Below are positions 24,272 through 57,302 of a stretch of 64,000 bases of DNA, in pieces (position 1 is the first letter of the stretch; each line of letters opens with the position of its first letter). Both the position numbers and the translations under genes were made by a program. Under the pieces are notes generated by a model. That model was not told the DNA's origin. It did no database searches and saw nothing but the letters and a program-made list of their open reading frames with translations. This DNA is from an uncultured Chthonomonadaceae bacterium (GTDB taxonomy: Bacteria > Armatimonadota > Chthonomonadetes > Chthonomonadales > Chthonomonadaceae). The DNA is taken from contig CAWFQB010000003.1 of NCBI GenBank assembly GCA_963817895.1, positions 64,001-128,000 on the forward strand, in the 5' to 3' direction.

Positions 24272-25135
24272 ATGCAGGCGCGTCTGGTTTCTTTGCTGAC
24301 AACGCAGGATCGCATGGAAATGTTCGTTCGCGGCGAACGCTGCGCGACGTATCGCTACGCCGAAGGGCAAATCCCCGGCTTCGTCAGTCTGTCCGCTCCC
24401 GGCGAACGCCTGATTACGCAGCCCAACGCGGACGGATTGGGAATGTGGCTGACATGCGAGGGAAAAGGGAAAAGGGTAAAGGGAAAAGAAGAGGAATCCC
24501 TCTTAACTCTCGACTCTCAACTCTCAACTCCTTCATCCTTTGCTACTATCGAAATGACGGCGCGGCGGGGGGCGTATTCTGTGGGATTTCAGCACGAATG
24601 CGCGTGGCTGAATGGGGCGGGGGAACGGCTGCTGACGGATACGCGGACGGTTCGGGTTGCGCCGGGGCCGAGCGAGGGGGCGATACTTGACATTGCCCTG
24701 CGCTTGCAGGCGGAAGCGGAACGGGGCGTGAGTTTTGCGCCCTCACAAGGGGGATTGCTGTGTCTGCGCGTGGCGTCCGGGCTGTTCGATTCGGGTACGG
24801 AGTTGATCGGCGGCGGGCAAATCCGCAACAACCGGGGCGAGTACGGCATGGCCGCATTGCACGGACGGCAGGCAAAATGGTGCGCGGGCGCGGGCGTGAT
24901 ACAGGGCGAAACGGTTGGCTTCGCGTTTCTGGAACATCCGCACAACCCGTATTTCCCCTCCCCGTGGATTGCCCGCGCGGATGGCCTTTTATCCCCCTCG
25001 CCCTTCGGCTGGCGCAGCCTGACGCTTGCTCCCGGCGACCGTCTCGACCTGCGCTACCGTATTTTGATTTACATGGGCTACGTCAATCAGGGATGGGCGG
25101 ATGCGCGTTTACAGGATTTTGCGCGGGAGGTTTGA
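24272..25135 (+). CDS. PmoA/DUF6807-like hypothetical protein with in-frame repeat insertion
   Basis: WL..GE.LL.D.R, LEHPHNP..P.PW..R..G, LDLRYRILI; GGAGG RBS. Confidence 0.6.
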   Translation: MQARLVSLLTTQDRMEMFVRGERCATYRYAEGQIPGFVSLSAPGERLITQPNADGLGMWLTCEGKGKRVKGKEEESLLTLDSQLSTPSSFATIEMTARRGAYSVGFQHECAWLNGAGERLLTDTRTVRVAPGPSEGAILDIALRLQAEAERGVSFAPSQGGLLCLRVASGLFDSGTELIGGGQIRNNRGEYGMAALHGRQAKWCAGAGVIQGETVGFAFLEHPHNPYFPSPWIARADGLLSPSPFGWRSLTLAPGDRLDLRYRILIYMGYVNQGWADARLQDFAREV

Positions 25136-25151
25136 AGCCCTCAACCCCCAG

Positions 25152-25179
25152 CCCCTTCTCCCAACATTGGGAGAAGGGG
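25152..25179. repeat. REP-like palindrome / terminator CCCCTTCTCCCAA-CA-TTGGGAGAAGGGG
   Basis: 13-bp perfect inverted repeat between convergent genes. Confidence 0.8.
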
Positions 25180-25190
25180 AGTATGTGAAA

Positions 25191-26181
25191 TTAACGTCGT
25201 ATATTGGTGGAAGCGCGGGAACGGGCGGCTTCGATCTCCTTGCGCGTGGACAGCAGCAGGTCGCCGGGCATGGTGTGTTTCAGCGCGGCCATCGCGACTC
25301 CGTATTCCAATCCGGCGTGAAAATCGTTTTGCAGATAGCCCAAAATCACGCCCGCGTTGAACGCGTCCCCGGCCCCGACCCGATCCACAACCTGCCCCAA
25401 CGTGTGCGGCGACGCGGCCCAATCCCCCGCATCGTCACAGGCCAACGCGCCGCCCCCGCCCAACGTCACCACAACCGTTCCGCAACCGTAACGCGCCTTC
25501 AATTCTCGCGCAACCTGCGCCCCTTCCCCCGTAATTCCGAACAGCAGTTCCGCATCGGCAAGCGGCGTCAGCAGCAAGTCAATGTGAGGCAGGAGCGGTT
25601 CCAGAACCTGCTTCGCCTGCTCCGCGTTCCACAGTTTGGCGCGATAGTTGATGTCGAACGAGATGCGCGTACCCGCCTGTTTCGCCGTCTGCATGGCGTG
25701 GAGAATGGCCTCCGCGCAGGACGGACTGAGCGCGGGCGTGATGCCGGACAGGTGCAGCAGGCGGGCGCGGGCAATACGGTCGTCGTCAACATCTGTCGGG
25801 CGTGAGCGTACTGGCCGAAGATTCGGCGCGGTCATAATACACGTCAATGCCGCGCGGCGGCAGGCCGAAATCCAGAAAATAGGTTCCGGCGCGGGCGGTT
25901 GGGGTTTCGTCCCAGACCACATCGGACGTATCCACGCCCCACCGCCGAATTTCGTTTTCAATGCGCCGTCCGAGCGGGTTGGCGGGCAGTTTGCTCCACC
26001 ACGCCGTACGCAAACCGAGCCGCGCAAGCGCCACAGCGGTATTCGATTCCGAGCCGCCAATCCGTACGTCCAGCGTGATGGCCTCTTCCAGTCGGCTGAA
26101 ACCCGGCGCGCTCAACCGCAGCATCGTTTCTCCGAAGGTCAGTACATCTAAGTCGCGCCCAGTTTGCTTGTCCTCAATCAA
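25191..26181 (-). CDS. kdgK: PfkB sugar kinase, 2-keto-3-deoxygluconate kinase-like (frameshift near 25795)
   Basis: FGETMLRL, GGSESNTA, YYDRAES; SFDINYR, DRVGAGDAF. Confidence 0.8.
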
Positions 26182-27080
26182 CTTGCTTTCGTCTCCGCTT
26201 CTGCTCGTTCCAGCATTGCAATTATGGCATCATAGCCGTGTGTTGTCGCTTCCTTCACTTCCCGCGCATAGTTCCGCGCATAGTTAGACTCGCTAAAAAT
26301 GTGTCGTCTCGCAATTGCTGCTTCCCGCGCCGTTTGGTTGTCTGGCTTAGTCTTTAGATACGGATTAGCGTGATATTCCAGCAGGACGGGAACAACACTC
26401 GTACAATTGCATGTGGCGGCTAGGTATAAAGCCGTACTGCCGTCATACCCCTGCGCATTTACATTTGCGCCAGATTCCAGCAACAGCCGTATGACTTGCG
26501 GGTAATCCCATAAAACGGCTTCATGCAGTGGCGTATGTCCCGATGCATCACAAGCATTCACATCCGCGCCATGCGCCAGCAAATCCTCTATCATACCCAA
26601 TCGCCATGGAATTGCATGCTCGTATTCTTCATACTCACGGCAGCAAGCATTACACAGTGAAGAACCACCCGGTCGCTCTGTTTTGGCTCCTTTTTGCAAT
26701 AACATGTGAACCGTTTCAAAGGACAGTCCGGCAGCGGCTTCCTCTAAAATTGTCGTGTCATAGATTCCCATCGCATTGATGTCCTCCCCATGTTCCAGTA
26801 ACAGGGCGACAATAGAAACATGGTTATTGTACGCGGCGTGATAGATTGCAGAAGCGGGATTTGCTCCCTCTTCGAGCAGCAGGCGAACAATCGCTTCGTG
26901 CCCTGATCTCGCCGCGTTGATAATAGCGGTTTCATCTCCTTCATCCACAGCATTCAGAAACCGCAAATACTCGGACGAAGATAATACTTCGCGCTGTTGA
27001 TTCAGTAAACGGTTTACTGTGGCGAAATCACCCTGTTCCACAGCAGTATGAAGATCATCTGGATTAGCAACGTGATCCAT
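26178..27080 (-). CDS. Cytoplasmic ankyrin-repeat protein
   Basis: Several G.T.LH/GADVN repeats; AGGAG RBS; no signal peptide. Confidence 0.9.
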   Translation of the reverse strand: MDHVANPDDLHTAVEQGDFATVNRLLNQQREVLSSSEYLRFLNAVDEGDETAIINAARSGHEAIVRLLLEEGANPASAIYHAAYNNHVSIVALLLEHGEDINAMGIYDTTILEEAAAGLSFETVHMLLQKGAKTERPGGSSLCNACCREYEEYEHAIPWRLGMIEDLLAHGADVNACDASGHTPLHEAVLWDYPQVIRLLLESGANVNAQGYDGSTALYLAATCNCTSVVPVLLEYHANPYLKTKPDNQTAREAAIARRHIFSESNYARNYAREVKEATTHGYDAIIAMLERAEAETKAS

Positions 27081-27100
27081 AGCGTCACCGCTCCTGTTAA

Positions 27101-28242
27101 CTCACCTTACGCAGGCGAGCAGTTTGTAGTCACAGATTTGCTGTTGTTGACGGTAGAATAGTGTCATGGACAAACAACTTCTGGACCTTTACTCAGACTA
27201 TCTCCTTTGTTCGTTCGGCCTGACTACCGCGACGGGCCTTTCCACCCTGCTCGACGGCGCGATTAGCCACGACAAGATCACGCGGTTCTTGTCAGGACGT
27301 GACTTCACTTCTTCGGACCTGTGGCATCTGGTCAAACCCTTGGTACGGCAGGTACAATGTGAAGACGCAGTTCTGGTCTTCGATGACAGCATCGAAGAAA
27401 AACTCTATACGGATGAAAGCGAACTCATTTGCTGGCATTGGGATCATTGCTTCAACCGCAACGTGAAGGGCATCAACATTCTGACCTGTTTGTATCGCGC
27501 GCCGACTGCCGCTCTGCCCGTTGCCTTCGAGTTGATCCAAAAGTCGGCTTGGGAAACGCATAAGAAGACGGGCAAACCCAAGCGAGTGTGTCCCAAGACC
27601 AAGAACGAATACCTGCGCGAGATGGTGGCGCAATGTCAGAAGAACCAATTGCCTTTTCGCTATGTCCTGGCCGACGCTTGGTTCAGCGCGGCAGAAACGA
27701 TGATGCACCTCAAAAACGAAGGCAAAACCGACTTTATCTTCCCGATTAAGGCCAACCGCAAGGTGGCTTTGTCCCAGGAAGACAAGTTGGCAGGCCGCTA
27801 TATGCCCGTATCCTCGCTTTGCTGCGAAGCGGACGCCGTATTGAACATCTGGCTGGAGGGGGTAAACTTCCCCCTTCTGCTGTGTAAGCAGGTCTTTACA
27901 AACAAGGACGGCAGCCAGGGCGTTCTCTATCTCGTGACGAGTGACACGACGTTAAGCGGTTGCGACATCCAGACGATCTACCAAAAACGGTGGAAAGTTG
28001 AAGAGTATCACAAATCGGTCAAGAGCAATGCGAGTTTCGCCAAGTCGCCGACCAAAACTATTCGGACCCAGAGCAACCATATCTTCGCCTGTTTATGGGC
28101 GTATGTGAAGTTGGAAAGTCTGCGTTTGCAGACGCGCTTGAACCATTTTGCGATGAAAGGCAGGCTCTACAAAGCGGCCCTTGCCAGCGCCTACCGCGAA
28201 CTACAACTGCTCAAAGGCATGAGTGCGCCTGCGTAAGGTGAG
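27101..28242 (+). mobile_element. Intact insertion sequence (1142 bp), DDE transposase, IS701/ISH3-like
   Basis: 17-bp perfect TIRs CTCACCTTACGCAGGCG (27101-27117, 28226-28242); 7-bp TSD CTGTTAA (27094-27100, 28243-28249). Confidence 0.93.
27166..28236 (+). CDS. DDE transposase
   Basis: SHDKITRFL, VFDDS, LADAWF, YQKRWKVEEYHK. Confidence 0.93.
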   Translation: MDKQLLDLYSDYLLCSFGLTTATGLSTLLDGAISHDKITRFLSGRDFTSSDLWHLVKPLVRQVQCEDAVLVFDDSIEEKLYTDESELICWHWDHCFNRNVKGINILTCLYRAPTAALPVAFELIQKSAWETHKKTGKPKRVCPKTKNEYLREMVAQCQKNQLPFRYVLADAWFSAAETMMHLKNEGKTDFIFPIKANRKVALSQEDKLAGRYMPVSSLCCEADAVLNIWLEGVNFPLLLCKQVFTNKDGSQGVLYLVTSDTTLSGCDIQTIYQKRWKVEEYHKSVKSNASFAKSPTKTIRTQSNHIFACLWAYVKLESLRLQTRLNHFAMKGRLYKAALASAYRELQLLKGMSAPA

Positions 28243-28245
28243 CTG

Positions 28246-29400
28246 TTAATGAACAATTAAGACGTGAGCAACGCCGACGATTGCGCCGCCGAGCACCAGC
28301 CATGCGGAGTTGACGCGCCAGCGCAGCAACAACAGGAGACTTATTCCACATAAAACGATGGTAGTTACATCTTTGAGCGCGTTCTGCGCGAGTTATCCTG
28401 TCACCAAAGCCATTAAAGCGAGGGACGCGACATTCACGCCGTCCAGAAACGCGCCCGCTAACTTAGATTGTCGGATACGCGCAACGAGCGGGCCGCTCAG
28501 GGCGACAAAGGCGAACGCGGGCAGGAAGATGCCTAACGTCGCCACGATTGCGCCTTTGGGACCGGCCAGAATGTACCCGATAAACGTTGCCGTTGTGAAT
28601 ACGGGACCGGGCGTTACCTGTCCGATGGCGACCGCGTCCAGCAGTTGCCCTGTTGTCAGTCATGCGCGTTTTGTCACCAGATCGTCGCGTAGAAAGGCGA
28701 GCAACACATACCCGCTGCCGTACACGACCGAGCCGAGTTTCAGAAACACAAGGCCGAGAGTGGTCAAGCCGAGCGTGGAAGACGCTCCGGCATAGCGGCT
28801 TAATACGAGGGGCAATGCAATCACTGCGCCGAACGTGAGCAGCAGTACAAGCAGCGGGCGTAAACTCTCTTTGCCCTTTCCATTTATCCACGCCGTGCCG
28901 CCCGCTGCCAGCCCGGACGCGCCTAATGCCAGCAAGGGATTTGCGCCCATTGCCGCCATCAGCAACGCGCCGACACCCACTGCGCCGAGGAACCGCGTCT
29001 TGATCGCTGTTTTACGCAGATTCCACAACGCCTGCGCGACAATGGCGACCACAACCGGCTTCACGCCGTACAATGCGCCCGCGATTTGCGGCAATTGCCC
29101 GAAGCGCGTATATGCCCACGCCAACAGCATGACCAGCAGAAACGCGGGCAAAATAAAGCACGTTCCCGCCAGAAACAGGCCCATCCATCCGGCTTTGCGA
29201 TACCCGATATGGATCGCCAATTCCGTTGAAGAGGGGCCGGGAACCAGATTGGACGCGCCAAGCAGGTCCAGAAACTGCTCCTTCGTGAGCCACTGCCGAC
29301 GCTCCACAACCTCCTGCTGCATCATGGCGATGTGCGCGGCAGGCCCTCCGAACGCCGTTGTTCCCAACCGCAGAAACAGGCGGGCCAGTTCCGCAGGCAC
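28246..29400 (-). CDS. chrA: Chromate efflux transporter, in-frame TGA at 28660-28662 (start approximate)
   Basis: FGGPAAHIA, PGPSSTE, YGSGYVL; same frame continues after TGA as LTTGQLLDAVAIGQVTPGP to TAA at 28246. Confidence 0.88.
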
Positions 29401-29494
29401 AGCCGATTGCGTTGTCGCTTCCGCAGGCCCAGTCGATGCGGGCGTTGTTTCCGGCAGGGCGGCATTATCTTCGGGTTCAGGATTTATCCGTCGC

Positions 29495-29971
29495 TCACAA
29501 TGCGTTTTCCGCGGCTTCGCGAATGGCGGTCAGTACCTCATCGCTGTGTCCCGGCACTTTCACCTTGCGGAAAATGGTACGAATTTTGCCGCCGGGGGCA
29601 ATCACATACGTCGCGCGTTCAATGCCCATATATTGCCGCCCGTACATGGATTTTTCCGCCCACACGCCGTACTCCTCCGCCGTCTTGTGTTCCGTGTCCG
29701 CCAGCAGGTGAAACGGCAGGTTGTACTTGTCGGCAAACGCGAGCTGCGCTTTGCTTTCGTCGGGGCTGATACCGAGCAGTACCGCGTTTTCGCCGCTGAA
29801 CTCTTCCCGCGCGTCCCGAAACGCGCAGGCTTCCGCCGTGCAGCCGGAGGTATCCGCTTTGGGGTAAAAGAACAGCACAACGGTTTTATCTTTCAGGCCG
29901 GACAGCATAACCGTTTCGCCATTCTGGTCGGGCAGGCTGAAATCGGGGGCCATATCGCCAACATGCAGCAT
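29495..29971 (-). CDS. bcp: Peroxiredoxin BCP/PrxQ
   Basis: FFYPKADTSGCTAEACAFRD, GIERATY. Confidence 0.95.
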   Translation of the reverse strand: MLHVGDMAPDFSLPDQNGETVMLSGLKDKTVVLFFYPKADTSGCTAEACAFRDAREEFSGENAVLLGISPDESKAQLAFADKYNLPFHLLADTEHKTAEEYGVWAEKSMYGRQYMGIERATYVIAPGGKIRTIFRKVKVPGHSDEVLTAIREAAENAL

Positions 29972-31196: not shown

Positions 31197-31211
31197 GGAC
31201 AGCACAACACT

Positions 31212-32708
31212 ATGGAAGAACAGATAACGGTTATCGGCGGCGGTTTTGGGGGCGTGGAAGCGGCGTGGGCGGCGGCGCAGCAGGGCAGCAGAGTAACGCT
31301 GTATGAAATGCGCCCTGTGAAGAAAACGCCCGTGCATCAGTCGGGCGACCTGGCCGAACTTGTCTGCTCCAACTCGTTCAAATCCAACCTGCTGACCAAT
31401 GCCAGCGGCGTGTTGAAGGAGGAGATGCGGCGTTTGGGTTCCCTGATTTTGCCCATTGCCGAACGCCACCGCGTTCCTGCCGGGGAAGCGCTTGCCGTAG
31501 ACCGCGAACCGTTCGCCCGCGAAGTGACCTGCGCCTTAGAAGCCCACCCCAACATCACGCTTGTGCGCGAAGAAGTCACCAGTCTACCGACAACGCGCCC
31601 CTTAATTATTGCCACCGGCCCGCTCACTTCCGATGCCTTCGCAGCCGAAATCGCCCGACTGACCGGCGGCGACTCGCTCGCCTTCTACGACGCCGTTGCC
31701 CCCACCGTCACTTACGACAGCCTGGACTTGAGCAAAGTGTTTCGCGCCTCTCGACGGGGAAAAGGGTCAGGACTTACGGGAAAGGCAATAGAAGAGGAGA
31801 AAAGGAGAAAAGGAGAAGAGGAGGCGGAAGAACTGGAAACGGCAGGAGAGGATTCATCCCTCATCCTTCATCCTTCATCCTTGCCCGCCGAAGGCGTCGG
31901 CTGTGGCGGCGCGCCGGAAGCCAGCGCGGATTACCTGAACTGCCCTTTTGAAAAGGACGAGTATATGGCGTTCTGGGAAGCGCTGAACGGAGCGGAAAAA
32001 GCGCCTGTACATAACTTTGAATCCGAGGACGCTAATCAGAACGCGGCGAAAATGGTGTTCTTCGAGATGTGCGTGCCGATTGAGGAACTGGCGCGACGGG
32101 GGCCGCGCACCCTTGCCTTCGGCCCGATGAAGCCTGTCGGCCTGAGCGACCCACGCACGGGGCGGCGTCCTTATGCTGTTGTGCAGCTGCGGCAGGAGAA
32201 CAAAGAGGGGACATTGTGGGGGCTGGTGGGCTTCCAAACCCGGCTGAAATGGGGCGAGCAGAAGCGTATTTTGCAGATGATACCGGGTCTGGAAAACGCT
32301 GAATTCGTCCGCTTTGGCGTGATGCACCGCAACACCTACGTCAACGCCCCGCGCCTGCTCGATTTGACGTGCCAACTGCGCGAACATCCGGGCATTTTCC
32401 TTGCCGGACAAATGACGGGCGTAGAGGGCTATCTCGAATCCGCCGCTATCGGCATCTTGGCGGGACTGAACGCGCATCGGCAGCGCGTGGGATTGCCGCC
32501 TGCCATTCCGCCCCGCGAGTCCGTGCTTGGTTCGCTGTGCTATTACCTCGTGGAAACCGACCCGAAACACTTCTCGCCCATGAACAGCAACTGGGGCGTT
32601 GTGCCGGAACTGCCCGGCCCCGTAGTGCGCGACAAGCGGGAAAAAGCAAGATTGAAGGGCGTCCGCGCTCTGTCCGCGTTTGACGATTTTCTGGCGACGC
32701 TGAGATAA
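31212..32708 (+). CDS. trmFO: FAD-dependent tRNA m5U54 methyltransferase with ~50-aa insertion
   Basis: AELVCSNS, IATGPLTS, DYLNCP, FGPMKPVGL, QLRQEN, GVMHRNT, AGQMTGVEGY. Confidence 0.96.
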   Translation: MEEQITVIGGGFGGVEAAWAAAQQGSRVTLYEMRPVKKTPVHQSGDLAELVCSNSFKSNLLTNASGVLKEEMRRLGSLILPIAERHRVPAGEALAVDREPFAREVTCALEAHPNITLVREEVTSLPTTRPLIIATGPLTSDAFAAEIARLTGGDSLAFYDAVAPTVTYDSLDLSKVFRASRRGKGSGLTGKAIEEEKRRKGEEEAEELETAGEDSSLILHPSSLPAEGVGCGGAPEASADYLNCPFEKDEYMAFWEALNGAEKAPVHNFESEDANQNAAKMVFFEMCVPIEELARRGPRTLAFGPMKPVGLSDPRTGRRPYAVVQLRQENKEGTLWGLVGFQTRLKWGEQKRILQMIPGLENAEFVRFGVMHRNTYVNAPRLLDLTCQLREHPGIFLAGQMTGVEGYLESAAIGILAGLNAHRQRVGLPPAIPPRESVLGSLCYYLVETDPKHFSPMNSNWGVVPELPGPVVRDKREKARLKGVRALSAFDDFLATLR

Positions 32709-32813: not shown

Positions 32814-33461
32814 GTGAATTTAGATCGCCAGATATTTATAGAATTCAATGAACGGTTGCACAACAGCGTTTTCGACGCCATTCTGCCCATTCTCACTAAC
32901 GCGCTGCAATACCCGCTGTTCTGGCTGTTGATGCTGCCTCTCGCGTGGCTCTTATGGGCGCGGGGCGGCAAACAGGACCGAACGGTTCTCGCTCTTCTGA
33001 TTGTCATGCTGCCGGTTGTCAATACGGTCAGCAGTCATGTTCTCAAACCGTTGCTTCCCCGTCCGCGCCCCAGCGCCGTTCTCATCGTAGATGGCAAAGA
33101 AGAGTCGGTCGTACCCGGCGCGCGTCTGCCGGCGCACTGGAAACCGCTCGGCACGTCCTCATTCCCGTCCTCCCATTCCGCTGTTACCGCCGCTGCCGCC
33201 GTTATTCTCCTCTGGGGGTATCGCCGCCGAACCCGTCTTGCGTGGCTTGCGCTGCTGTTGCCGCTTACCATCGGCTACTCGCGGGTGTATGTGGGGGTTC
33301 ACTATCCCTCCGATGTGCTGGCCGGATGGACGCTCGGCTTTGCCCTGACCTCTCTGGTATGCTATCTGGTTGGGCGACAGCAACAAAATGCGTCTTCACC
33401 ACAGAGACACAGAGACACAGAGGGGTTACAGAGAAAAGGAGAGGAGGAGATCACGCATTAA
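32814..33461 (+). CDS. PAP2 family phosphatase
   Basis: K....RPRP, SFPSSHS, SRVYVGVHYPSDV; GTG start after GGAGG. Confidence 0.92.
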   Translation: MNLDRQIFIEFNERLHNSVFDAILPILTNALQYPLFWLLMLPLAWLLWARGGKQDRTVLALLIVMLPVVNTVSSHVLKPLLPRPRPSAVLIVDGKEESVVPGARLPAHWKPLGTSSFPSSHSAVTAAAAVILLWGYRRRTRLAWLALLLPLTIGYSRVYVGVHYPSDVLAGWTLGFALTSLVCYLVGRQQQNASSPQRHRDTEGLQRKGEEEITH

Positions 33462-33529
33462 ATGTACTCGCTTCCTCTCTTTTTGTTTTCCTCTGTGACC
33501 CCTCTGTGTCTCTGTGTCTCTGTGGTGAA
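33395..33529. repeat. Palindromic element with 39-bp arms built of ACAGAGAC(A/C)-type nonamers
   Basis: 33395-33433 pairs with 33491-33529 with one G-U; left arm lies in the PAP2 3' end. Confidence 0.9.
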
Positions 33530-33534
33530 AGAAT

Positions 33535-34743: not shown

Positions 34744-37287
34744 ATGATCAACCTGCCTGAAGAAGTGTCCCGTTCCCTGCGCGGCGCGACACAATCTGCC
34801 GATAGTAAACCACAGCTAAAAACGGGGCCGCGATTGCGGCCCAAACCCTATAGAAAGCAAGCAAATACCGTTCGATGGTTCGCGCAGGCCATTGTATTAA
34901 CGGCAAGCGCACTCGGGACGCGCGCTATTTTGCCCCACACAGCAATGGCAAACACAACGCTTCCTGTCAAAGAAGACAGGCTCATTATTGCCCGCCCCGC
35001 CGGCAAAACGACATCCAGGCGGGTTCAGCGTCAATCGGCGCGCGTAGATGTCCGCCGCGCCCCTTCCACCCGCGCTTTGTTTCAGTATCGGCGCGACGAT
35101 ACCACGCCGAATAAAGTAACCCTTGTGCAGATAGACGCGGCGAAGCAGGCGGCAACGCCGGTCAGTCCGAATATCTTCGGCAACTTTATCGAGCATCTCG
35201 GCGGCGTGGTCTATCAGGCGCTCTGGTCACAGATTTTGCTCAACCCGAACTTGGAGCGCATCGAAGCCCGCGATATCCTGCCCAATGCCTGGCAGAAATC
35301 GGGCGCGGCCACCTGGCAGGCGGACGGTTTCAAGTCGCCCATGTACATGCGGCTCGGCCCGGATACGAAGAAGACCACTTCCTCGGGATTTCTGCCGGAC
35401 AGCAGACTGGCCGCGCCGGTCGCAAGGTTATCCGTCGCGAGTGGCGGCAACGTCGAAAGCGCGGGGCAACAGCGCAAATCGGGTTCCGTATTGCAGATCG
35501 GCTGGAAGCAATCTGTATCCCGTCCTGCCACGCTATGGCAGCACGTTTCCCTGCCCGCGCAGCGAGTCACGCATTATAATGTAACGCTTGTAGCGCGCGC
35601 CCCAATGGGAACCGGCAAGATTCGAGTCACGCTGGCGCGGGAACAGGAAACAGAAGAGGAGAAGAGGAGAAGAGGAGAAGAGGAGAAAGCAGCAACCCTA
35701 TCAACTCTCAACTCTCAACTCTCAACTACATTTGCGGTGACGCAAACGAACTGGCAGGCGTTTCGCTGTACCCTTGTCGTGCCGAAATCGGCTACGCCGG
35801 AAGAGAATCTGTGGCGTTTTATGATTGCGCATGAGGACGGGCAGGCGGTAGACGTGGATCAGGTGGAGATGCTGCCGAGCGACAGCATGGACGGGTTCGA
35901 CCCGGAAGTTGTGGGCCGAACAAAAGTGTGGGGCGTTCCGCTGTTGCGCTATCCGGGCGGCAATTTCGCCAGCGGCTACAACTGGCAGGACGGGGTTGGC
36001 CCTCACGCGAATCGCCCGACTCGACGCAACCCGGCGTGGGGCGGCGTGGAACCCAACCATGTCGGCACGAACGAGTTTATGACGTTTGCCCGACTGGTGG
36101 GCGCGACGCCGCAACTGACCGTCAATGCGGGGGACGGAACGCCGCAGGAGGCCGCCGAGTGGGTGCGCTACTGTAACGCGCCCGCCGCTAACGATAAATG
36201 GGGCCGGATGCGGGCGGCGAACGGCGCGACAAAACCGTTCGGCGTGAAAATCTGGGAAGTGGGCAACGAACTGTACGGCGGCTGGCAGATCGGACACGCG
36301 GAAGCGCAGGATAACGCCAACCGTTTCGTGAAATTCCGCGACGCCATGCTTCAGGCCGACCCGACGCTGCGCCTGATCGCGACCGGAAAGGGCGACGAGT
36401 TCACGCCCACAGGCCAGAAGCGCGACGATGCGTGGAACGACGCGCTGTTGCAAGCCGCGGCAAAAGACGGCGGACAGGCGCCCGACTGGATTTCGCTGCA
36501 TCCTCTCGTTCCCCTGCCGGATTACGCGAAGGGCGCGACGTATGACGAACAGTTGGAAAGCGCCCTTGCGCATCCGACCTATTTGGATAACACGCTGATA
36601 CCAGACGTAATCGGCCACATTGAGGCCGTTGAGGGTAAACACGCGCACACTCGTATCGCGATTACGGAGTGGGGAATCATTGTTGGCGGCAGGGAGTGGG
36701 AAAGCGGCCCGAACCATGACACGCTTTCGGGAGCCATTTACAACGCTCTAGCCCTGAACGCTATGCTGCGCAACAGCGATTGGGTGACGCTGGCGAACAT
36801 GACCGCGCTGCTGCACGGCGGCGGCATTAAAAAGTGGGAAGGCATCGTGTACGTGGACCCGCAGTATTACACGCAGCAGATGTATACGCTGGCCCATCCC
36901 CACGCGCCGATTGCCACGACGACAACAGGGCCGGGAAGCGATGTGCCTGCGCGGGGGCAAATGCCCGCCGTGAAAGACGCGCCGGATGTCGACGTGTTCG
37001 CCGCCCGAACGCAAAACCATCGGAAACTGGTCGTGTTCGCCGTCAACCGTCACCGGAGCGAAGCCCGCGCCTTGCGCCTGCAAGTGGATCATTTCCAGAC
37101 GCAAGGGGTTTCGGCCACCCTGCTGACCGCCGATAACCCGCAGGCGCGTAATACATTGGCCTCGCCCAATGCCGTAGAACCGCGCCCGATGGAGGTTCCC
37201 GCGTGGCCGACCGAACCCGGAACCGACTGGCAAATCAGCATCCCGCCCCATTCGCTGGTTGTTCTGACATTGGAGGGGAAAGGTTAA
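34744..37287 (+). CDS. Alpha-L-arabinofuranosidase (GH51)-like, start uncertain
   Basis: IFGNFIEHLG, RYPGGNF..YNWQDGVGP, WEVGNE, AITEWG. Confidence 0.88.
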   Translation: MINLPEEVSRSLRGATQSADSKPQLKTGPRLRPKPYRKQANTVRWFAQAIVLTASALGTRAILPHTAMANTTLPVKEDRLIIARPAGKTTSRRVQRQSARVDVRRAPSTRALFQYRRDDTTPNKVTLVQIDAAKQAATPVSPNIFGNFIEHLGGVVYQALWSQILLNPNLERIEARDILPNAWQKSGAATWQADGFKSPMYMRLGPDTKKTTSSGFLPDSRLAAPVARLSVASGGNVESAGQQRKSGSVLQIGWKQSVSRPATLWQHVSLPAQRVTHYNVTLVARAPMGTGKIRVTLAREQETEEEKRRRGEEEKAATLSTLNSQLSTTFAVTQTNWQAFRCTLVVPKSATPEENLWRFMIAHEDGQAVDVDQVEMLPSDSMDGFDPEVVGRTKVWGVPLLRYPGGNFASGYNWQDGVGPHANRPTRRNPAWGGVEPNHVGTNEFMTFARLVGATPQLTVNAGDGTPQEAAEWVRYCNAPAANDKWGRMRAANGATKPFGVKIWEVGNELYGGWQIGHAEAQDNANRFVKFRDAMLQADPTLRLIATGKGDEFTPTGQKRDDAWNDALLQAAAKDGGQAPDWISLHPLVPLPDYAKGATYDEQLESALAHPTYLDNTLIPDVIGHIEAVEGKHAHTRIAITEWGIIVGGREWESGPNHDTLSGAIYNALALNAMLRNSDWVTLANMTALLHGGGIKKWEGIVYVDPQYYTQQMYTLAHPHAPIATTTTGPGSDVPARGQMPAVKDAPDVDVFAARTQNHRKLVVFAVNRHRSEARALRLQVDHFQTQGVSATLLTADNPQARNTLASPNAVEPRPMEVPAWPTEPGTDWQISIPPHSLVVLTLEGKG

Positions 37288-37366
37288 GGGTTGAGGGTTG
37301 AGGATCATTGACACCAAACCGCGCTCTATTGCTCATTTGCCAGGCGCGCGGTTTCTATCTGCATCA

Positions 37367-37732
37367 CTAAGGAAGACGCGTAATCACCACCCGCCCGCCA
37401 TCCTTGAATTCAATCAGCACTTCGTAGCCATCCAAAAGTGATGTGCCGAGCAGAGGTATGCCTTCGGCTTCTAAAACATCAACGTTGCGCTCTGCGCCAT
37501 CCCAGAGTATCACGGCTTTGTGAACAGCCATCAGAGTGGTACTGCCATCTGCCAGCGTTGCAGGACGGTAGTGGTCCAATGGCAAGCCAAGCGCGGCAAT
37601 AGCGGCAGACGGCAGCGTGAGTTGGCCCGTAAACCCGGTATCCAGCGCGACATCAGCATTGCCCTGAATACTCACGCCGCGTATGGTGAGCATCAGCAAC
37701 GCGTGTCTGCCGGAAACCATACCCTGCATCAT
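37367..37732 (-). CDS. Clan AA aspartic protease, AF_0612-like
   Basis: LDTGFTG, LADG, PLLGTSLL. Confidence 0.88.
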   Translation of the reverse strand: MMQGMVSGRHALLMLTIRGVSIQGNADVALDTGFTGQLTLPSAAIAALGLPLDHYRPATLADGSTTLMAVHKAVILWDGAERNVDVLEAEGIPLLGTSLLDGYEVLIEFKDGGRVVITRLP

Positions 37733-48179: not shown

Positions 48180-48191
48180 AGGAGGGACGCG

Positions 48192-50833: not shown

Positions 50834-50865
50834 CGTGACGTTCGACCCGGAAAGGATTCTCCGCC

Positions 50866-51762: not shown

Positions 51763-51818
51763 GGATCGCCTTATTTCATCCTATAGCCTCGCAGCCGATA
51801 CGCGACGCGCAGAGGGTG

Positions 51819-52463
51819 TTATTCCCAATAGTCTTCCCATTTGTCGCCGATAGCGCGTTTTAGCTTCTCCATATAGGCCATTGTCTTGATTTTGACCATC
51901 CATACGTCTTCGCCGCCGGTTCCACCCTTGCAGACAACGCCCTCATCCACTCTGTATTTGCCGCTGCGAACGTCATCAATGAATTTGCCGTTCAATTTGC
52001 CCTCGTAAATAACGCGGGGAATGGACAGGTGGCCGAAGTCCGTTACGAACGCTTTGGGGCCAATCATGCCGTAGCTTTCCGCCCAAACATCGAATAGCAT
52101 TAACTGCTTGGCGTCTTCCGTTTTGTGCAGTCCGGCAAACGAGTTCGGCCCGACAAACTCTGTAAACACCTTGCAACTGTCGAACTTCTGGTACTCAGCG
52201 TTGTTACGGAAAACCTGTTCAATGCCGTCCGCCAGCGTTTGCAGAAACACTTCGGCGGCCTCTTTCAAATGCGCGTGGGTCTGCCCGAACTGCGCGATGC
52301 CGGTGTCCGTCAGATTGAACTCGTCCCGGCGCGTGCCAAAGCTGTGCCAGCCGAAATCGCGTTCCCAATCCCAGTGCAGATTGGTTCCATCCACCTTTTC
52401 AAAGGCGATACAGCGCCCGGTCGGACATGAAAGACTGCCCGGAATTTTAGGATAGTGCAACAT
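51819..52463 (-). CDS. RNA ligase-like nucleotidyltransferase (Rnl2-type core only)
   Basis: YPKI, motif I EKVDGTN, GTR, III TEFVG, IIIa LFDV, IV EGVVCK, V VKIKT. Confidence 0.75.
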   Translation of the reverse strand: MLHYPKIPGSLSCPTGRCIAFEKVDGTNLHWDWERDFGWHSFGTRRDEFNLTDTGIAQFGQTHAHLKEAAEVFLQTLADGIEQVFRNNAEYQKFDSCKVFTEFVGPNSFAGLHKTEDAKQLMLFDVWAESYGMIGPKAFVTDFGHLSIPRVIYEGKLNGKFIDDVRSGKYRVDEGVVCKGGTGGEDVWMVKIKTMAYMEKLKRAIGDKWEDYWE

Positions 52464-52528
52464 AATCAACTCACAAGACTGATCCGCAAATGTGGGGAAG
52501 AACTTGTGCTGTGTTCCTCGTTAAAGTT

Positions 52529-53146
52529 TCATTGGGTTTCAACATTTGTAACTTCGAGAAGAGGCGCGCCCGCGTACAGCACATCCGCGCGCAACAGGTA
52601 TTTGCGTCCGCTTTCGATTGCCGCGCCCTCGTGCTTGCGCTCATGGACGAAGAACAAGCCCATGCCTGTTTGTGGAACCACTTTGATCTCATGGGTGAGG
52701 ATACCTTCAGGCGTATGTGTGTAATTGCGGAATTTGGTTTCGCCGCCCGTATAATCCTCGTTCAGATAGATGAGAAAAGACAGTCGGCTGATCGGCCCCT
52801 CGGCGGTTTGTACGCGCCCATCCTGATGGCGCTTGAAACGCTGTCCCACGTCGTAGCGATAGAACCGCAGGCGCGGGTTCAAGCCTACGACGGCAAAGCC
52901 CTCCATCTCCTGCGGCACATACGCGCGGACGCGCTCCCACAAATCTGCTGTAAACGTCGCATCTTCCCACGTCACGCGGTCATTGTTGCGAATATGGGGC
53001 AGCATCTGCGCGCCGGATGCCATCGCTACAGAAGCCGCCTCAAACCCAATGCCTTCACCCCGCGCAATCAGTTCTCGACACTCTTCCACATCAAAAACAT
53101 CAGCAACCGTAAAAACATTGACATCCAGTGTAACAAGATTGTTCAT
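52529..53146 (-). CDS. 2OG-Fe(II) oxygenase (prolyl-4-hydroxylase-like)
   Basis: RFYRY..GQRFKRHQDG, LIYLN..GGETKF, HEG, KYLLRAD. Confidence 0.9.
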   Translation of the reverse strand: MNNLVTLDVNVFTVADVFDVEECRELIARGEGIGFEAASVAMASGAQMLPHIRNNDRVTWEDATFTADLWERVRAYVPQEMEGFAVVGLNPRLRFYRYDVGQRFKRHQDGRVQTAEGPISRLSFLIYLNEDYTGGETKFRNYTHTPEGILTHEIKVVPQTGMGLFFVHERKHEGAAIESGRKYLLRADVLYAGAPLLEVTNVETQ

Positions 53147-53161
53147 CCTTCATCCTTGCTT

Positions 53162-54760
53162 TTAATCTTCCATCAGGCGCATGATGGCTTTTGCCAGCAG
53201 TCCGGCGTCGTGGCGCACGACGTCGGTTTCGTTGATGTAGTTGCCGGGAAGGGGGCGGTAGCCGTCGGATTTCAGGCGATCCAAATCCGGCTCGACGAGG
53301 ATTGCGCCGGTTTTGCGGTACTTTTCCAACAGCGTAATGTCGGGGTGCTGCGTGTTGACCAGAACGTAGTTGAAAATGCGGGTTCCGGCATGGCGCTCGA
53401 TGGCGCGGACGTGATCGGATGCGGAAAATCCGTCCGTTTCTCCGGGCTGCGTCATCACGTTGCACACGTATACCTTTTTGGCTTTGGAGCGGCGAATGGC
53501 TTCCGGCACGCCGCGCACCAGTAGATTCGGAATCACGCTGGTATACACGCTGCCGGGTCCCATCACGATTACATCGGCTCTGGCAATGGCGTCCAGAACC
53601 GATTGCAGCGGGCAGGCGTCTTCGGGAACCAGAGTGACGCGCTTGATTTTCAGGGGCGAGTGGGCAATATTGGTTTCGCCATCCACAAACGAACCGTCCT
53701 CCATCTCGCCACGCAGTTTCACCTCATCTACGGTTGTCGGCAACACCTGCCCGCGTATGTTCAGAACCCGGCTGGTTTCCCGAACGCCCCGCTCGAAGTC
53801 CCCGTCATTGATGGCGCACATGGCCGCAATCAGCAGGTTTCCAAACGCATGATCGCGCAGGCCCTCGCCCATTGAGGATTGCCGATTGTCGATTGCCGAT
53901 TGAAGATTAGGGATCGAGGATTGGGAGTTGTCGCTTATTGTGTTCTCGCCTCGAATACCATTCCCATGTTCCGGCAATAGCACGTCACGAACCGTTGAGA
54001 GTTGAGAGTTGAGAGTTGAGGGTTCCGCGACTATGGATTGCGGATTGGAAATTGTGAATTGACTTTCCCCTTTTCCCTTTTCCCTTTTCCCTTCCTCTGT
54101 CTCCCTGTCTCCCTTTCTCCTCTTCTCCTCTTCTCCCTTTCTGTTCCCCTCCTCCGGCTTGACGTTGTTGCGAAAGCGGTACTGGAACAGTTCGGTCATT
54201 TGCGGTTCGGCGTCGGCGAGCGCGACAAGGCAGTTGCGAATGTCGCCGGGTGGCAGAATGTGCAGTTGTTTTTGCAGTTTGCCCGATGAGCCGCCATCAT
54301 CGGCAACCGTGACAATCGCGGTGATGTTGGCGGAATACCGTTTCAGGCCGCGCAGCATCGTAGACAGGCCGGTTCCGCCGCCGATGACGACAATCCGCCG
54401 TCCATGTGTGAGCCTGCGCCGCTGGTATACGATGTCCACCAGTCCGCCGGGAGCCATTTCAGGGTCGAGAACGCTGGTCAGCGATTGGATCAGGCGGGCA
54501 AGGGCAATCAGGCACAGACTCGCGCCGATTACCGTCAACATCACGCCAAGCTGACCCGGACGCAACGCGCCGACATGCGCGTGATGGATCAGCCAGTCGG
54601 CGAAGCGCACGGCAAGTGGTTTGTCCAGCCCCTCGTGCGCCTGAATAATCACGCCCATTCCTGCCATGAACGCCAGAAACCCAACGATGGCAAGGGCTAT
54701 CCAGCGCTTGACGTGCATGTTTGGGTACAGCCATTTCAGCGACGCGCGCAGTCGGCTCAT
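53162..54760 (-). CDS. yvcK: YvcK/GlmR UDP-GlcNAc-binding protein with N-terminal TM helices and ~100-aa insertion
   Basis: GGGTGLSTMLRGLK, DDGGSSG, PPGDIRN, GPGSVYTSVIPNL, NVMTQPGET, VRHD. Confidence 0.93.
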   Translation of the reverse strand: MSRLRASLKWLYPNMHVKRWIALAIVGFLAFMAGMGVIIQAHEGLDKPLAVRFADWLIHHAHVGALRPGQLGVMLTVIGASLCLIALARLIQSLTSVLDPEMAPGGLVDIVYQRRRLTHGRRIVVIGGGTGLSTMLRGLKRYSANITAIVTVADDGGSSGKLQKQLHILPPGDIRNCLVALADAEPQMTELFQYRFRNNVKPEEGNRKGEEEKRRKGDRETEEGKREKGKGESQFTISNPQSIVAEPSTLNSQLSTVRDVLLPEHGNGIRGENTISDNSQSSIPNLQSAIDNRQSSMGEGLRDHAFGNLLIAAMCAINDGDFERGVRETSRVLNIRGQVLPTTVDEVKLRGEMEDGSFVDGETNIAHSPLKIKRVTLVPEDACPLQSVLDAIARADVIVMGPGSVYTSVIPNLLVRGVPEAIRRSKAKKVYVCNVMTQPGETDGFSASDHVRAIERHAGTRIFNYVLVNTQHPDITLLEKYRKTGAILVEPDLDRLKSDGYRPLPGNYINETDVVRHDAGLLAKAIMRLMED

Positions 54761-54789
54761 GGGCGTGCCGGCCTTTCCAGGAAGGGGAG

Positions 54790-54824
54790 GGTGTTCGGTA
54801 TTCGGTATTCGGTGTTCGGTGTTG
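54790..54824. repeat. Heptamer array GGT(G/A)TTC x5
   Basis: Direct reading; between rapZ and yvcK. Confidence 0.8.
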
Positions 54825-54830
54825 GGAGGC

Positions 54831-55766
54831 TCATTTTGACCTCCGGTTGTCTTGCGCCGAAGTTGCGCCTGTTACCGTTTCCGCGCCGCCGGGTAGGGGG
54901 GGATTGGTTACGTCCCGGTGGCGAATGGCGACGTTCAAACCCTCGGCGCGCAACTGCGCCGCGAGGTCTTCCGTCAGCACGACGGAACGGTGTCTGCCGC
55001 CCGTGCAGCCGATGGCGATATTCAGGTACGCTTTGCCTTCGCGCTCGTACTGCGGCAGGGCGAAACGAATCAGATCAATCATTTTCTCATGAAACGGGTG
55101 GGTGAGCGGGTCGGCGTGGACATATTCGGCAACGGGCGCGTCCGTGCCATTCAGCGGTTTCAGGTCGGGAACGTAGTGCGGGTTGCGCAGAAAGCGAACA
55201 TCGAAAACAAGGTCGGCGTCAATGGGCAGGCCGTGCTTGAAGCCGAATGAGATCACGGTAATCAACATGCCGGGGCGCGTGTCGGGCGCATACGTGGCAT
55301 GAATCACGTCGCGGAACTGCGTGGCCGAGAGTTGGCTGGTATCCAGAACGCTGTCGGCAAGCGTCCGGGTAAATTCGAGCAGGCCGCGCTCTGCGTGGAT
55401 AGCGTCCACAATGCTGTCGCGCATCACGCCGTCTTCGGGGGCGCGTAACAGAGGGTGGGGGCGGCGCGTCTCTTTGAAGCGCTGCACGAGAGCCGCGTCG
55501 CTGGCGTCCACGAACAGCGTTTCCACGTCCACGCAGGCTTTGTCCAGTTGTTGCAGCACGTCGGGCAGTTCGGCAAAGGCCGCGCCCGCGCGGGTGTCAA
55601 TCACGACCGCGCCCCGCGCGTAGCCCTCCTCGCGGCAAAAGTTAATCAGCGCGGGCAGCAGGCGCGGCGGCAGGTTGTCTACCGTGTAGTAGCCCGCGTC
55701 CTCGAAACTATGCAGCGCCAGCGTTTTGCCCGCGCCCGATGGCCCCGTCAACACCACAAATCGCAT
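54831..55766 (-). CDS. rapZ: RNase adapter RapZ/YvcJ
   Basis: TGPSGAGK, VDNLP, ETRRPHPL, SFGFKHG, DVRFLRNP, GCTGGRHRSV. Confidence 0.96.
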   Translation of the reverse strand: MRFVVLTGPSGAGKTLALHSFEDAGYYTVDNLPPRLLPALINFCREEGYARGAVVIDTRAGAAFAELPDVLQQLDKACVDVETLFVDASDAALVQRFKETRRPHPLLRAPEDGVMRDSIVDAIHAERGLLEFTRTLADSVLDTSQLSATQFRDVIHATYAPDTRPGMLITVISFGFKHGLPIDADLVFDVRFLRNPHYVPDLKPLNGTDAPVAEYVHADPLTHPFHEKMIDLIRFALPQYEREGKAYLNIAIGCTGGRHRSVVLTEDLAAQLRAEGLNVAIRHRDVTNPPLPGGAETVTGATSAQDNRRSK

Positions 55767-56231
55767 CGCGTCTCGCCCTTCCCCACCAACCGCAACCAGA
55801 ATAGCGTCTTGCTGTTCTCATTATACCGCATTGCGCGTGGACAACTCTCTGGCCGCATTGTCAAGCCCGGGGCAGCGTCTTTAAATGGGGAGGAAAATAT
55901 GTAGAGACAGCGTCGAAATAGTGGCAATGCAGCGCTTCCAGCCCGGTGTCTCGTTGTGTCAAGTTTTTAAGAGGAGGCGTCGCGACCTCGAAAGCGTCAG
56001 GGCGAACGGGAGTAGTAGTACATTGCCTTGCGCCTCCTTTATAATGTAGTAGACATTTGTTTATGTAGACCGCGTTTGTGCCGCGAAAGTTTCCTTGTTT
56101 CGCGTTGTTCAGAACTTTATTCTGTATTCGCGCCTTTTTTTGGGCGGGAGCGTGTTTGCCGCAGGTCTACTGCGTAACTCACCGCGCCCAAAAAGAGAGA
56201 TTTCTGCAAGCAATAAATATTTGCGCAAGTC

Positions 56232-56260
56232 TTGACACAGCAATTGACCTGTGCTATAGT
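56232..56260 (+). promoter_or_regulatory. Sigma70 promoter TTGACA-N17-TATAGT with extended -10 TG
   Basis: Hexamers at 56232-56237 and 56255-56260, upstream of the C39-Rhs locus. Confidence 0.7.
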
Positions 56261-56474
56261 CTCACAATCCTGTTGTGTTAATATGCCGGAAGATATAAAT
56301 TCAGGCGAACAGCGCCAGGAGCGCCATCCTCGAAGCCCCTTTTGTCCCGACGCAGAACGCTTCCCGCATCCGTTCGCATTATCTTGTTCTCTTTTCTCTC
56401 GCCCTGTTGTTTGCAGGATTGTTGGCAGCCGTTTTGTGTTCACCTGTGTTTCCTCGTGAAAGGCATGGTGGGTC

Positions 56475-57302
56475 ATGGTTGTTTCTTGTCCTGTTCGCCT
56501 GCGCCCTTATTCTTTACGGCTTCTGCTGCTGGCAAGCCTGCCCCTGCTTGTCGGCTGCTCCCATGCGCCCCCTTCCGCAACCCTGTCACAAACGCGCTCC
56601 ACGCCGCGTATGCAGAGGACTGCCGCGCTCGTTACCCTCACGCCGCAACAAACCGCCCTTGCAACTGTACAAGCCCTGCCCCTGTACCAGCAGGCGCGGC
56701 AAGCCTGCAACGCGCGGCAATTCCGCCGCGCTTCCGACCTCCTTGCCCAACTCGCCGCTTCTTCTACTCTTTCCGCCGAACAAGTCGCCTTTGTGCAGGA
56801 ACAACGCGACCTGTGCCTGCATGATGCCGGACTGCCGCTGGAGGAGAGAAAAGGAGAAGAGGAGCAGAGGAGAAAAGGAGAAGAAGCAACCGCAACCCCA
56901 ACACCCGACACCCAACACCCAACCCCCTCTGCCGATTGTGGGCCGCGCGCTCTGTTGCTGGCGTGTGAGCGGTTGGGCGTGAAGACAACCCTGCCGCAGT
57001 TGCGGAAGGGGGCAGGCACGACGGCAGGGGGAACCAGTTTAGCAGGATTGGCGGACGCGGCGAAGCGGATGGGGTTGAAAGCGGAGGGCGTTCAGGTCAG
57101 CCGCGAAGCGCCTGGCGATGTGGAGATGCCCGCTCTGGCTTACGTCAACGGCAACCATTTTGTGGCTGTGCTGAGTGTGCAGGGAAGGGGTGAAGGCGGC
57201 ACGGCGCGTATTCACGACCCCAACAAGGGAGAGGAAGAGACGATTTCACAGGAACGCTTACTGCGCCTGTGCAGTGGCTATCTGCTGTTAGTGCAGAAGT
57301 AG
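56475..57302 (+). CDS. Lipoprotein with stand-alone C39 cysteine peptidase domain
   Basis: Lipobox LLVGC; DCGPRAL, GTSLAGL..AA..GL, NHFVAV, IHDPN. Confidence 0.88.
   Translation: MVVSCPVRLRPYSLRLLLLASLPLLVGCSHAPPSATLSQTRSTPRMQRTAALVTLTPQQTALATVQALPLYQQARQACNARQFRRASDLLAQLAASSTLSAEQVAFVQEQRDLCLHDAGLPLEERKGEEEQRRKGEEATATPTPDTQHPTPSADCGPRALLLACERLGVKTTLPQLRKGAGTTAGGTSLAGLADAAKRMGLKAEGVQVSREAPGDVEMPALAYVNGNHFVAVLSVQGRGEGGTARIHDPNKGEEETISQERLLRLCSGYLLLVQK

Follow-up and report, generated by a model that had tools for sequence, protein, structure and literature searches.

Why should five unrelated genes of one bacterium each carry, in frame, a short block of tandemly repeated words? The question is raised by a stretch of 64,000 nt (the window; contig CAWFQB010000003.1 of assembly GCA_963817895.1, positions 64,001-128,000, forward strand) from an uncultured Chthonomonadaceae bacterium. 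Positions below are window-based unless a genome or locus label precedes them. The five inserts are coding members of a genome-wide family of two-armed cassettes, and we consider it probable that they are old slots overwritten by copying from other cassettes. The cassettes have a common anatomy and occupy sites common to relatives, at which the words have changed; each genome has its own vocabulary, near-identical composites are found in unrelated genes, and the copies within genes are filtered at the level of the peptide. The assembly of the source genome (G000) is 7.48 Mb and 81% complete. It was compared with a sister species (G002), with a genome of the same genus (G001), in which arrays were sampled in three 20-kb pieces, and with one public sequencing run (X1), which contains relatives at ~85-94% identity and not the source strain. 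A metagenome scan gave a closest relative at 82% identity and none nearer.

The five inserts reported in the original prediction are all present and all in frame in the window sequence. They and their host genes are as follows.

24272..25135, + strand: DUF6807 host gene (PF14100; formerly labelled PmoA, 'PmoA-like'), by profile match.
24459..24545, + strand: mixed cassette in the DUF6807 gene, by repeat arrays, homologs and model.
31212..32708, + strand: trmFO host gene (GIDA family), by profile match and PDB 3g5q alignment.
31790..31882, + strand: mixed cassette in trmFO, by arrays, relatives and structure alignment.
34744..37287, + strand: GH51 alpha-L-arabinofuranosidase host gene, by profile match.
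35652..35727, + strand: mixed cassette in the GH51 gene, by arrays (35652-35687 and 35701-35727) and homologs.
53162..54760, - strand: yvcK host gene (CofD family), by profile match and PDB 2hzb alignment.
53867..54154, - strand: stacked cassettes in yvcK, four arrays, by arrays, homologs and structure alignment.
56475..57302, + strand: peptidase C39 domain host gene, by profile match.
56846..56927, + strand: mixed cassette in the C39 gene, by arrays (56846-56884 and 56893-56927) and homologs.

In the DUF6807 gene, the left arm is GGGAAAA x4.3 (24459-24488) and the right arm a CTCAACT-type word x4.4 (24500-24530) with a remnant TCATCCT unit on its 3' side, and the cassette peptide is EGKGKRVKGKEEESLLTLDSQLSTPSSF. 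Each of seven close homologs has a different word pair at this site, and an X1 contig at 92% identity to the gene has CAATCGT as right arm. Distant homologs keep the segment HGNVNG...GRIV, which is partly or wholly missing in the cassette-bearing close homologs; the cassette takes the place of a conserved protein segment and is not simply added. The AlphaFold model of the protein has a mean predicted local distance difference test score (pLDDT) of 89, which falls to 48-57 at residues 61-90. The proposal that the inserts form disordered loops is supported by the one insert with a usable model, which is a low-confidence loop; a single-sequence AlphaFold model of TrmFO (pLDDT 37) was unusable.

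The trmFO cassette consists of GGAGAAAA x4.2 (31790-31823) and TCATCCT x4.3 (31853-31882), with EEEKRRKGEEEAEELETAGEDSSLILHPSSL as an example of the derived peptide. The insert had been placed at ~31765-31922, of which 31790-31882 is cassette and the remainder a non-repeat loop that is variable across the family. Relative to PDB 3g5q, 53 additional residues lie between positions 182 and 183. Loops could be extracted from 28 of 30 trmFO loci and are very variable in length across the family, also without repeats; arrays were found in 4 (G000, G002, G053 and G056), all different, the sister species G002 having other words at the site. In the GH51 gene, GGAGAAGA x4.5 is followed by CTCAACT x3.9. 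The homologs P0173-P0176 (89, 86, 78 and 73% identity) have one or both arms changed, and most of the distant homologs are ~17 residues shorter at this site. The four yvcK arrays are purine octamers (54097-54154), GGGAAAA x4.4 (54063-54093), CTCAACT x4.4 (53994-54024) and a GGCAATC-type word (53867-53908). Homologs at 93, 87 and 82% identity keep some outer arms and differ in the inner modules, an X1 contig at ~94% identity has 195 nt vs 234 nt in G000 (a difference of 13 codons), the loop ranges from 8 to 126 residues among 120 homologs, and the G000 protein has 99 additional residues relative to PDB 2hzb. The C39 cassette is GGAGAA(A/G)A x4.9 followed by CCCAACA x5.1; a G002 homolog (56% identity) has other words in this linker, and a G001 homolog a linker without repeats. 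Simple addition of loops to the proteins is not supported, since the trmFO and yvcK cassettes lie in loops already variable across the family and the DUF6807 cassette replaces a conserved segment.

Genome-wide, 1,611 arrays of period 7-10 were found in G000 and grouped into 1,028 clusters. The density was 147 period-7 and 59 period-8 arrays per Mb, whereas a 5th-order Markov control of 1.5 Mb gave none. The clusters located well within called genes number 202, or 187 clusters in 166 genes under a stricter gene score, and about one fifth of the G000 cassettes are intragenic. A typical arm has ~4 copies of a 7-8-base word, with periods from 7 to 10 and ~50 words per genome; copy number peaks at 4 (752/1540 arrays) and reaches at least 6 in 16 arrays. 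ACGAGAT, AAGGATG and AAAAGGAG are the commonest G000 words, and one word reaches 166 arrays in G000 vs 0 in 1.89 Mb of G002. With arms oriented by base composition alone, 445 pairs within 200 nt had the G-rich arm first and the C-rich arm second, and 7 had the opposite order; the recount of 453 vs 4, after context re-orientation of the few words with equal G and C, is partly circular. As the G-then-C layout is its own reverse complement, it looks the same on both strands and is uninformative about the gene. The shared sense-strand polarity noted in the five genes exists, but it is a property of the cassette and is not tied to genes; the strand difference lies in which words occur, not in arm order. 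Hairpin loops have a median length of 53 nt, and the spacers of mixed cassettes are short (median 12 nt) and unique.

Several side observations concern these hairpins. In 67/223 G000 and 49/104 G002 hairpins (shuffle means 21 and 10), one arm has ATGC on its inner side at a distance of up to 16 nt, and ATGC also occurs immediately interior to the upstream arm of some four-helix-bundle genes. Word-armed hairpins of ~100 nt are present within rRNA genes (G000:C4:872001-884000), in the 16S (AGATATT, L211:2985-3046) and the 23S (AGGGATT, L211:6977-7036), with an extra insertion of ~69 nt near 23S model position 312. The 23S hairpin presumably lies at helix 45. A hairpin of the CACCAAGA type lies directly 5' of comEC (G000:C1 ~953700). 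A separate multi-copy intergenic element with a short open reading frame (ORF) was also seen (G000:C4:348191, C1:763517, C1:356783 and others), some copies of which have gained word arms.

The comparison with the sister species bears on how the sites were filled. Where both flanks of a G000 cassette lie in one G002 reading frame, 36/40 sites hold a G002 array, compared with 0/89 controls; the 24 in-frame filled sites comprise 12 with no common word, 9 with some and 3 with all. In the reverse comparison of 57 G002 sites, 41 are filled in G000, 12 are empty and 4 are of similar length without an array. Between genes, the 346 matched junctions were filled in both genomes in 86 cases, only in G000 in 14, only in G002 in 50 and in neither in 196. 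Unrelated words were found at 58 of the 86 doubly filled junctions, and both arms had changed together in 20/30 hairpin-hairpin pairs. The vocabularies differ accordingly in density, ACGAGAT occurring at 22 vs 0 per Mb (G000 vs G002) and AGGCATT at 0 vs 23 per Mb. A spreading process restricted to a lineage, as had been proposed, is supported by the presence of (TCATCCT)3 in 7/61 related genomes. Insertion of new material into empty sites was not what the homolog alignments gave: the sites are common to relatives and their content is swapped. No target-site duplication was recognisable in 12 alignments (~5 of them filled-vs-empty) whose flanks are only ~80-85% alike.

The reading closest to the original prediction is loss of cassettes and independent gain of others, unguided by any old cassette, with sites coinciding because tolerant loops and junctions (hot spots) are few. 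The 12 empty orthologous sites agree with it. So does the trmFO loop, which cassettes entered separately in another family (G053, G056) and also in 4 contigs from metagenomes, and so do the length and variability that the trmFO and yvcK loops show in proteins lacking repeats. Against it, a co-occupancy of 36/40 vs 0/89 would require that nearly every tolerant site be filled; inner modules often change between outer arms that persist, as in the yvcK homolog P0002, and in some arms a related word has taken over in register. We regard such hot spots as an unlikely explanation, though less so than the other alternatives to overwriting. An assembly artefact of a noisy long-read genome has next to no probability. 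The frame disruption in 21/105 G000 control coding windows relative to G002 points to many indel errors or pseudogenes, but cassettes at the same sites in an independent genome, in independent protein records and in public-run contigs refute it as the cause of the cassettes' existence; single bases inside them may still be in error.

Overwriting of old slots also requires that content moves between sites. Most hairpin spacers are unique (38/227 match another spacer), and loop relatedness exceeds the null 99th percentile in 25% of same-word vs 7% of different-word pairs. At matched hairpins with changed words, loop likeness equals random (n=29, p=0.16), which argues that whole hairpins were replaced. 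Among multi-arm coding cassettes, 36/116 have a close partner (score at least 0.75, spacer included) in another gene. Some arms have changed in register to a related word, e.g. AAGGATG to AATGATG, and a clean single-arm insertion (L129) adjoins a one-mismatch copy of its own word; copying would then be primed by short word homology. Comparison of paralogs within G000 yielded 16 pairs, too few or too diverged to give cassette boundaries.

Mobility might be dispensed with altogether if the arrays arose in place by replication slippage and palindrome-guided correction, the words drifting and both arms following. Words at matched sites are identical or differ by one base more often than expected, some changes are in register and transitions dominate within arrays, all of which fit this. 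In-place evolution fails to yield 166 arrays of one word against none in the compared part of the sister genome, and it leaves the near-identical composites in unrelated genes, the copy number capped near 5 and the unrelated loops at matched hairpins unexplained. As an overall account it is very improbable and as the sole process it is largely refuted, although it may act alongside copying.

Within genes, the cassettes differ in kind from those between genes. Complementary arms were found in 256/334 non-coding vs 13/110 coding two-armed cassettes; the other 97 of the 110 are non-complementary. With stop-free orientations only, the ratio of complementary to mixed cassettes was 223:78 non-coding vs 13:97 coding (p=6e-31). 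Stop-containing orientations are filtered, as had been supposed, lying within genes in 8 of 691 possible arrays. A filter of stops only does not suffice, since stop-free hydrophobic arms and complementary arm pairs are also depleted in genes. Hydrophobic stop-free orientations (mean hydropathy >0.7, a cut-off picked post hoc from the table) were in-gene in 8/650 vs 260/1,211 for the remaining stop-free orientations, and hydropathy and in-gene frequency were negatively correlated over 46 stop-free orientations (rho -0.65). Because stop-free hydrophobic arms are nearly excluded, the filter acts on the peptide and not on stops alone. The effect persists among mixed cassettes, where a long hairpin cannot form, with hydrophobic arms in 6/97 coding vs 33/86 non-coding orientations (p=1e-7).

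The argument that the true complements contain TGA is right for some words, but neither CCCAACA nor the purine octamers have a stop in their complements, which are nevertheless almost absent from genes. Pure AAGGATG arrays number 0 on the sense strand, 77 in non-coding DNA and 43 antisense, and a stop-evading variant occurs 7 times in sense. In translation a purine word yields charged residues, while its complement yields F, L and S; one of the two arms of a perfect hairpin is therefore usually unfavourable. The hydropathy and stop pattern is indirect evidence that the inserts would be translated, and loss of long double-stranded RNA may add to the coding filter. In a frame test, a shift or stop was present at 12/40 G000 sites vs 22/105 control windows, which is no excess; for G002 the values were 21/57 vs 6/80 controls, the 57 including intergenic read-through.

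The original prediction also named candidate genes for the mobilising activity. Two of these families do sit between word arms: in G000, 2/2 PF05635 (four-helix-bundle) and 4/4 PF13366 (GxxExxY) genes lie between inverted word arms, while RAYT-like, DUF559 and reverse transcriptase (RT) genes were not linked. In relatives, 25 PF05635 loci (the own-genome locus and 5 weak matches excluded) had arrays on both sides in 20 cases, on one side in 2 and none detected in 3. The arms include words of the five inserts, with GGAGAAAA octamers around a PF05635 gene in G002, GGGAAAA around one in G019 and TCATCCT words around a weaker match (E 5e-11) in G053; the word of the G053 trmFO insert also flanks another G053 PF05635 gene. 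AGTAGTC, the arm word of a PF05635 carrier in G002, is among the most expanded G002 words (22 vs 0.4 per Mb). The (TCATCCT)3 genomes all fall (7/7) among the 20/61 genomes with at least 2 PF05635 matches.

Other candidates were rejected. Two DUF559 genes (G000:C1:437988, C5:310841) have paired flanks of repetitive extragenic palindrome (REP)-like type from another family, two Y1 genes (C5:223662, C2:68237) have REP-like flanks of their own, and none has word arms; a margin of 800 nt around each of the 3 PF01797 (Y1/RAYT-like) matches in G000 contained no word array. Matched heptamer arms in G000 beyond PF05635 and PF13366 enclosed 11 gene candidates with no consistent new family. The single PF00078 match in G000 is retron-like (best retron_St85, just below cut-off) and far from the PF05635 genes. 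It adjoins a BRCT-domain protein and a 1,163-residue protein without NCBIfam match (L212:1738-8753, G000:C6), likely a defence operon. Adenine-biased mutation was also rejected: in 5 spacer families the columns with A are conserved to the same degree as the remaining ones, and the arrays show ordinary transitions. Of the competence genes, comEC was found in 4/5 and dprA in 3/5 genomes searched, including the cassette-poor G001, which is uninformative on a link. One spacer motif searched in G000 gave no match.

The RT in G000 would be central if a telomerase-like or defence-type RT added ~4 G-rich words to each 3' break end and the ends were rejoined. Such de novo templated synthesis would directly give inward polarity and mixed arms, and the strict G-strand-inward polarity, the fixed copy number and the short unique mixed spacers fit it. 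The G000 RT is retron-like, though, and four of the seven word-bearing genomes (G021, G040, G053 and G058, the last 77% complete) have no PF00078 match. Hairpin loops are inherited with the word, composites recur with their spacer in unrelated genes, and adenine-biased change is not seen. We judge this explanation improbable.

The overwriting of old slots could proceed as follows. A word would first reach a lineage in the arms that enclose a PF05635 or GxxExxY gene, and gene-less copies of that cassette would then spread it. Primed by short word-to-word homology, such a copy would settle where a cassette already exists or where the sequence happens nearly to match its word; the resident hairpin would be replaced entirely or in one arm, or the copy would be stacked beside it. 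The predicted cutter is the GxxExxY PD-(D/E)XK nuclease or a host hairpin nuclease, with the four-helix-bundle protein as predicted nucleic-acid-binding partner. Between genes the complementary hairpin would survive. Within genes a hairpin would nearly always have one stop-containing or hydrophobic arm, and selection would leave mixed cassettes with charged or polar loops. In its boldest form, which we put forward tentatively as a possibility, this is a transposase-free and RT-free element, driven by the four-helix-bundle and GxxExxY proteins, that would recognise its own earlier insertions and overwrite them; a coding-adapted mixed sub-lineage would hop between protein loops, and in ~170 proteins it would rewrite 15-40 residues in less time than the remainder of the protein needs to diverge by 10%.

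The following points weigh against this reading or narrow it. Only 1.89 Mb of the 8-Mb G002 genome was compared with G000; the G000 gene calls (6,542 genes, 75% coverage) come from our own script, and the frameshifted control windows described above bear on them. About 4 of the 40 'coding' sites are intergenic read-through, and the 4 unfilled ones include at least 2 paralog comparisons and 1 false array. New insertion also happens, as the empty sites (12/57) indicate. Arm words are identical or one base apart in 46/158 non-coding pairs (null ~8), the rest being random-looking, and some arms persist or drift in place. An expected age order, the inner arm younger than the outer, was not significant (48:32, p=0.09; 29:23, p=0.49), and purity was equal. 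Regarding the driver genes, kin are not independent, so genome counts overstate; 13/20 genomes with at least 2 PF05635 matches are without (TCATCCT)3; the three commonest G000 words have no PF05635 or PF13366 carrier in the 81%-complete assembly; and five GxxExxY genes are present in G001, whose three 20-kb samples contain no array. The cutter is a predicted one, and the inserts are presumed to be translated.

The cassettes are small elements of the kind formed by REP doublets forming hairpins (REPINs), transposable elements of the miniature inverted-repeat type (MITEs) and intervening sequences (IVSs). REPINs and their REP-associated tyrosine transposases (RAYTs) resemble them in having two inverted arms within 200 bp (here 445 inward vs 7 outward), hundreds of copies per genome, master copies that carry a gene between arms of the same kind, and sites that are conserved although their element type changes. 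In Pseudomonas chlororaphis, the available part of a recent preprint reports that 13/20 fully conserved spaces hold mixed REPIN types and suggests overwriting (10.1101/2024.10.14.618302). Unlike REPINs, the cassette arms are tandem 7-10-mer words and not palindromic REPs, ~50 words are used per genome, the Y1/RAYT-like genes of G000 have other flanks, and ~1/5 of the cassettes are intragenic. MITEs, as class II non-autonomous elements, share the terminal inverted repeats of the intergenic hairpins, while the five coding cassettes are mixed-armed. The genes between matched arms belong to PF05635 and PF13366, not to transposases, a comparison made without a screen of all transposase families and in an assembly 81% complete. 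Rickettsia palindromic elements (RPEs; Ogata et al. 2000), as summarised in the accessible text of PMC10969869, are small repeats found in frame in many unrelated proteins, as the cassettes are (187 clusters, 166 genes); they are ~150-bp palindromes with a conserved peptide per family, unlike the coding cassettes, which are 50-110 bp, mostly non-palindromic, combinatorial in peptide and replaced at fixed sites between close relatives. The cassettes thus work like REPIN overwriting combined with RPE entry into proteins but fail defining features of both.

According to the portion of PMC4990558 available, the 23S IVS of Coxiella and Leptospira has complementary ends and an S23p ORF, tandem heptamers lie 5' of the Coxiella ORF, and RNase III removes the insert. 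The gene-carrying cassettes likewise have complementary ends around PF05635, and gene-less members lie in the 16S and 23S. The five inserts are gene-less and lie in protein genes, not in rRNA; the IVS, as described there, is a single rRNA insert, whereas ~1,000 copies lie here between or in protein genes, where an intact message cannot be regained by cutting the RNA. Another possibility is that the host maintains the hairpins as RNase III sites between operon genes and in rRNA, the coding copies being tolerated spill-over or useful loop variation. Besides the Coxiella IVS, with its heptamers, four-helix-bundle ORF and RNase III cleavage, the rRNA hairpins and the filling in G002 of 86/100 G000-filled junctions fit such a role. 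Against host maintenance, the word is not conserved, the spread of words is left unexplained, arrays are absent from the three 20-kb samples of the congeneric G001, and the DUF6807 cassette displaced conserved residues. It is extremely improbable, only the assembly artefact being given less weight.

Cyanobacterial short tandemly repeated repetitive (STRR) sequences are heptamer repeats akin to the Xanthomonas/Nostoc type. The available text on the latter describes four-unit arrays and convergent pairs (Rehm et al. 2015, PMC4692102), and that on the TAACTGA repeats of Beggiatoaceae describes stop codons limiting entry into genes (PMC4679880). As far as these texts extend, the 7-mers, the preference for four units and the position of the G-rich arm after a stop and the C-rich arm before a start are similar, but one word per genome is described, G-quadruplex or regulatory roles are favoured, and no link is made to cargo genes, word replacement or in-frame mixed cassettes. 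ACGAGAT, AAGGATG and AAAAGGAG contain no GGG run, and a few words have one. Diversity-generating retroelements (DGRs) also rewrite a fixed protein-gene site repeatedly, and the PF05635 protein is presumably Avd-like. Unlike in DGRs, no associated RT, no template/variable repeat pair and no adenine-specific change were seen. In the part available of an RT-classification preprint (10.1101/2021.01.26.428298), GxxExxY is named in passing only.

The window holds further cassettes and arms outside the five inserts; rows without a strand are unstranded.

3288..3398: complementary-arm cassette, TAGGTTGT octamer and its complement, 3' of pcm; intergenic, fold z -4.2.
4055..4195: hairpin of CACCAAGA-type outer arms and an inner GGAGAAAA block; intergenic, fold z -6.0.
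9374..9402: lone arm, CCTGAACA octamer, by array scan.
24209..24254: mixed cassette, AGATACG then CCGAACA, 5' of the DUF6807 gene, by array scan.
33395..33530: nearly perfect CACAGAGA-armed hairpin in the gap of two convergent genes, with overlap into the end of the PAP2 gene; fold z -20.3.
37282..37303, + strand: lone G-rich arm GGTTGAG at the GH51 stop codon, by array scan.
53142..53157: short TCATCCT arm at the yvcK 3' junction, by array scan.
54790..54823: CCGAACA arm between rapZ and yvcK, by array scan.

The CACCAAGA-type arms of the 4055..4195 hairpin match those around one GxxExxY gene. Directly 3' of the GH51 arm lies a clan AA aspartic protease gene (37367-37732; TIGR03698, slightly below cut-off). 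A dispersed repeat at 55895-56125, upstream of the C39/RHS locus, recurs many times in G002 and G001, and at 57728-61428 a C39 peptidase gene is followed by a gene for a 1,016-residue RHS-repeat protein, where G002 has an array of related RHS pieces.

In the literature searched, mostly open-access main texts, we found no description of word replacement within proteins or of the coding form, and no established mechanism either for bacterial heptamer repeats or for the four-helix-bundle '23S IVS' protein. The lineage offers a testable system, having fixed addressable sites, genome-specific words and candidate genes with same-word arms. EEKRRKGEEE, SSFILHPSS and STLNSQL in annotated proteins are explained as repeat products and not as functional motifs. 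If the overwriting of old slots is true, it would be a route of protein evolution in which the loops of ~170 proteins, some of them housekeeping enzymes, are rewritten again and again by a selfish element, conserved residues can be displaced and selection would be visible on the peptide.

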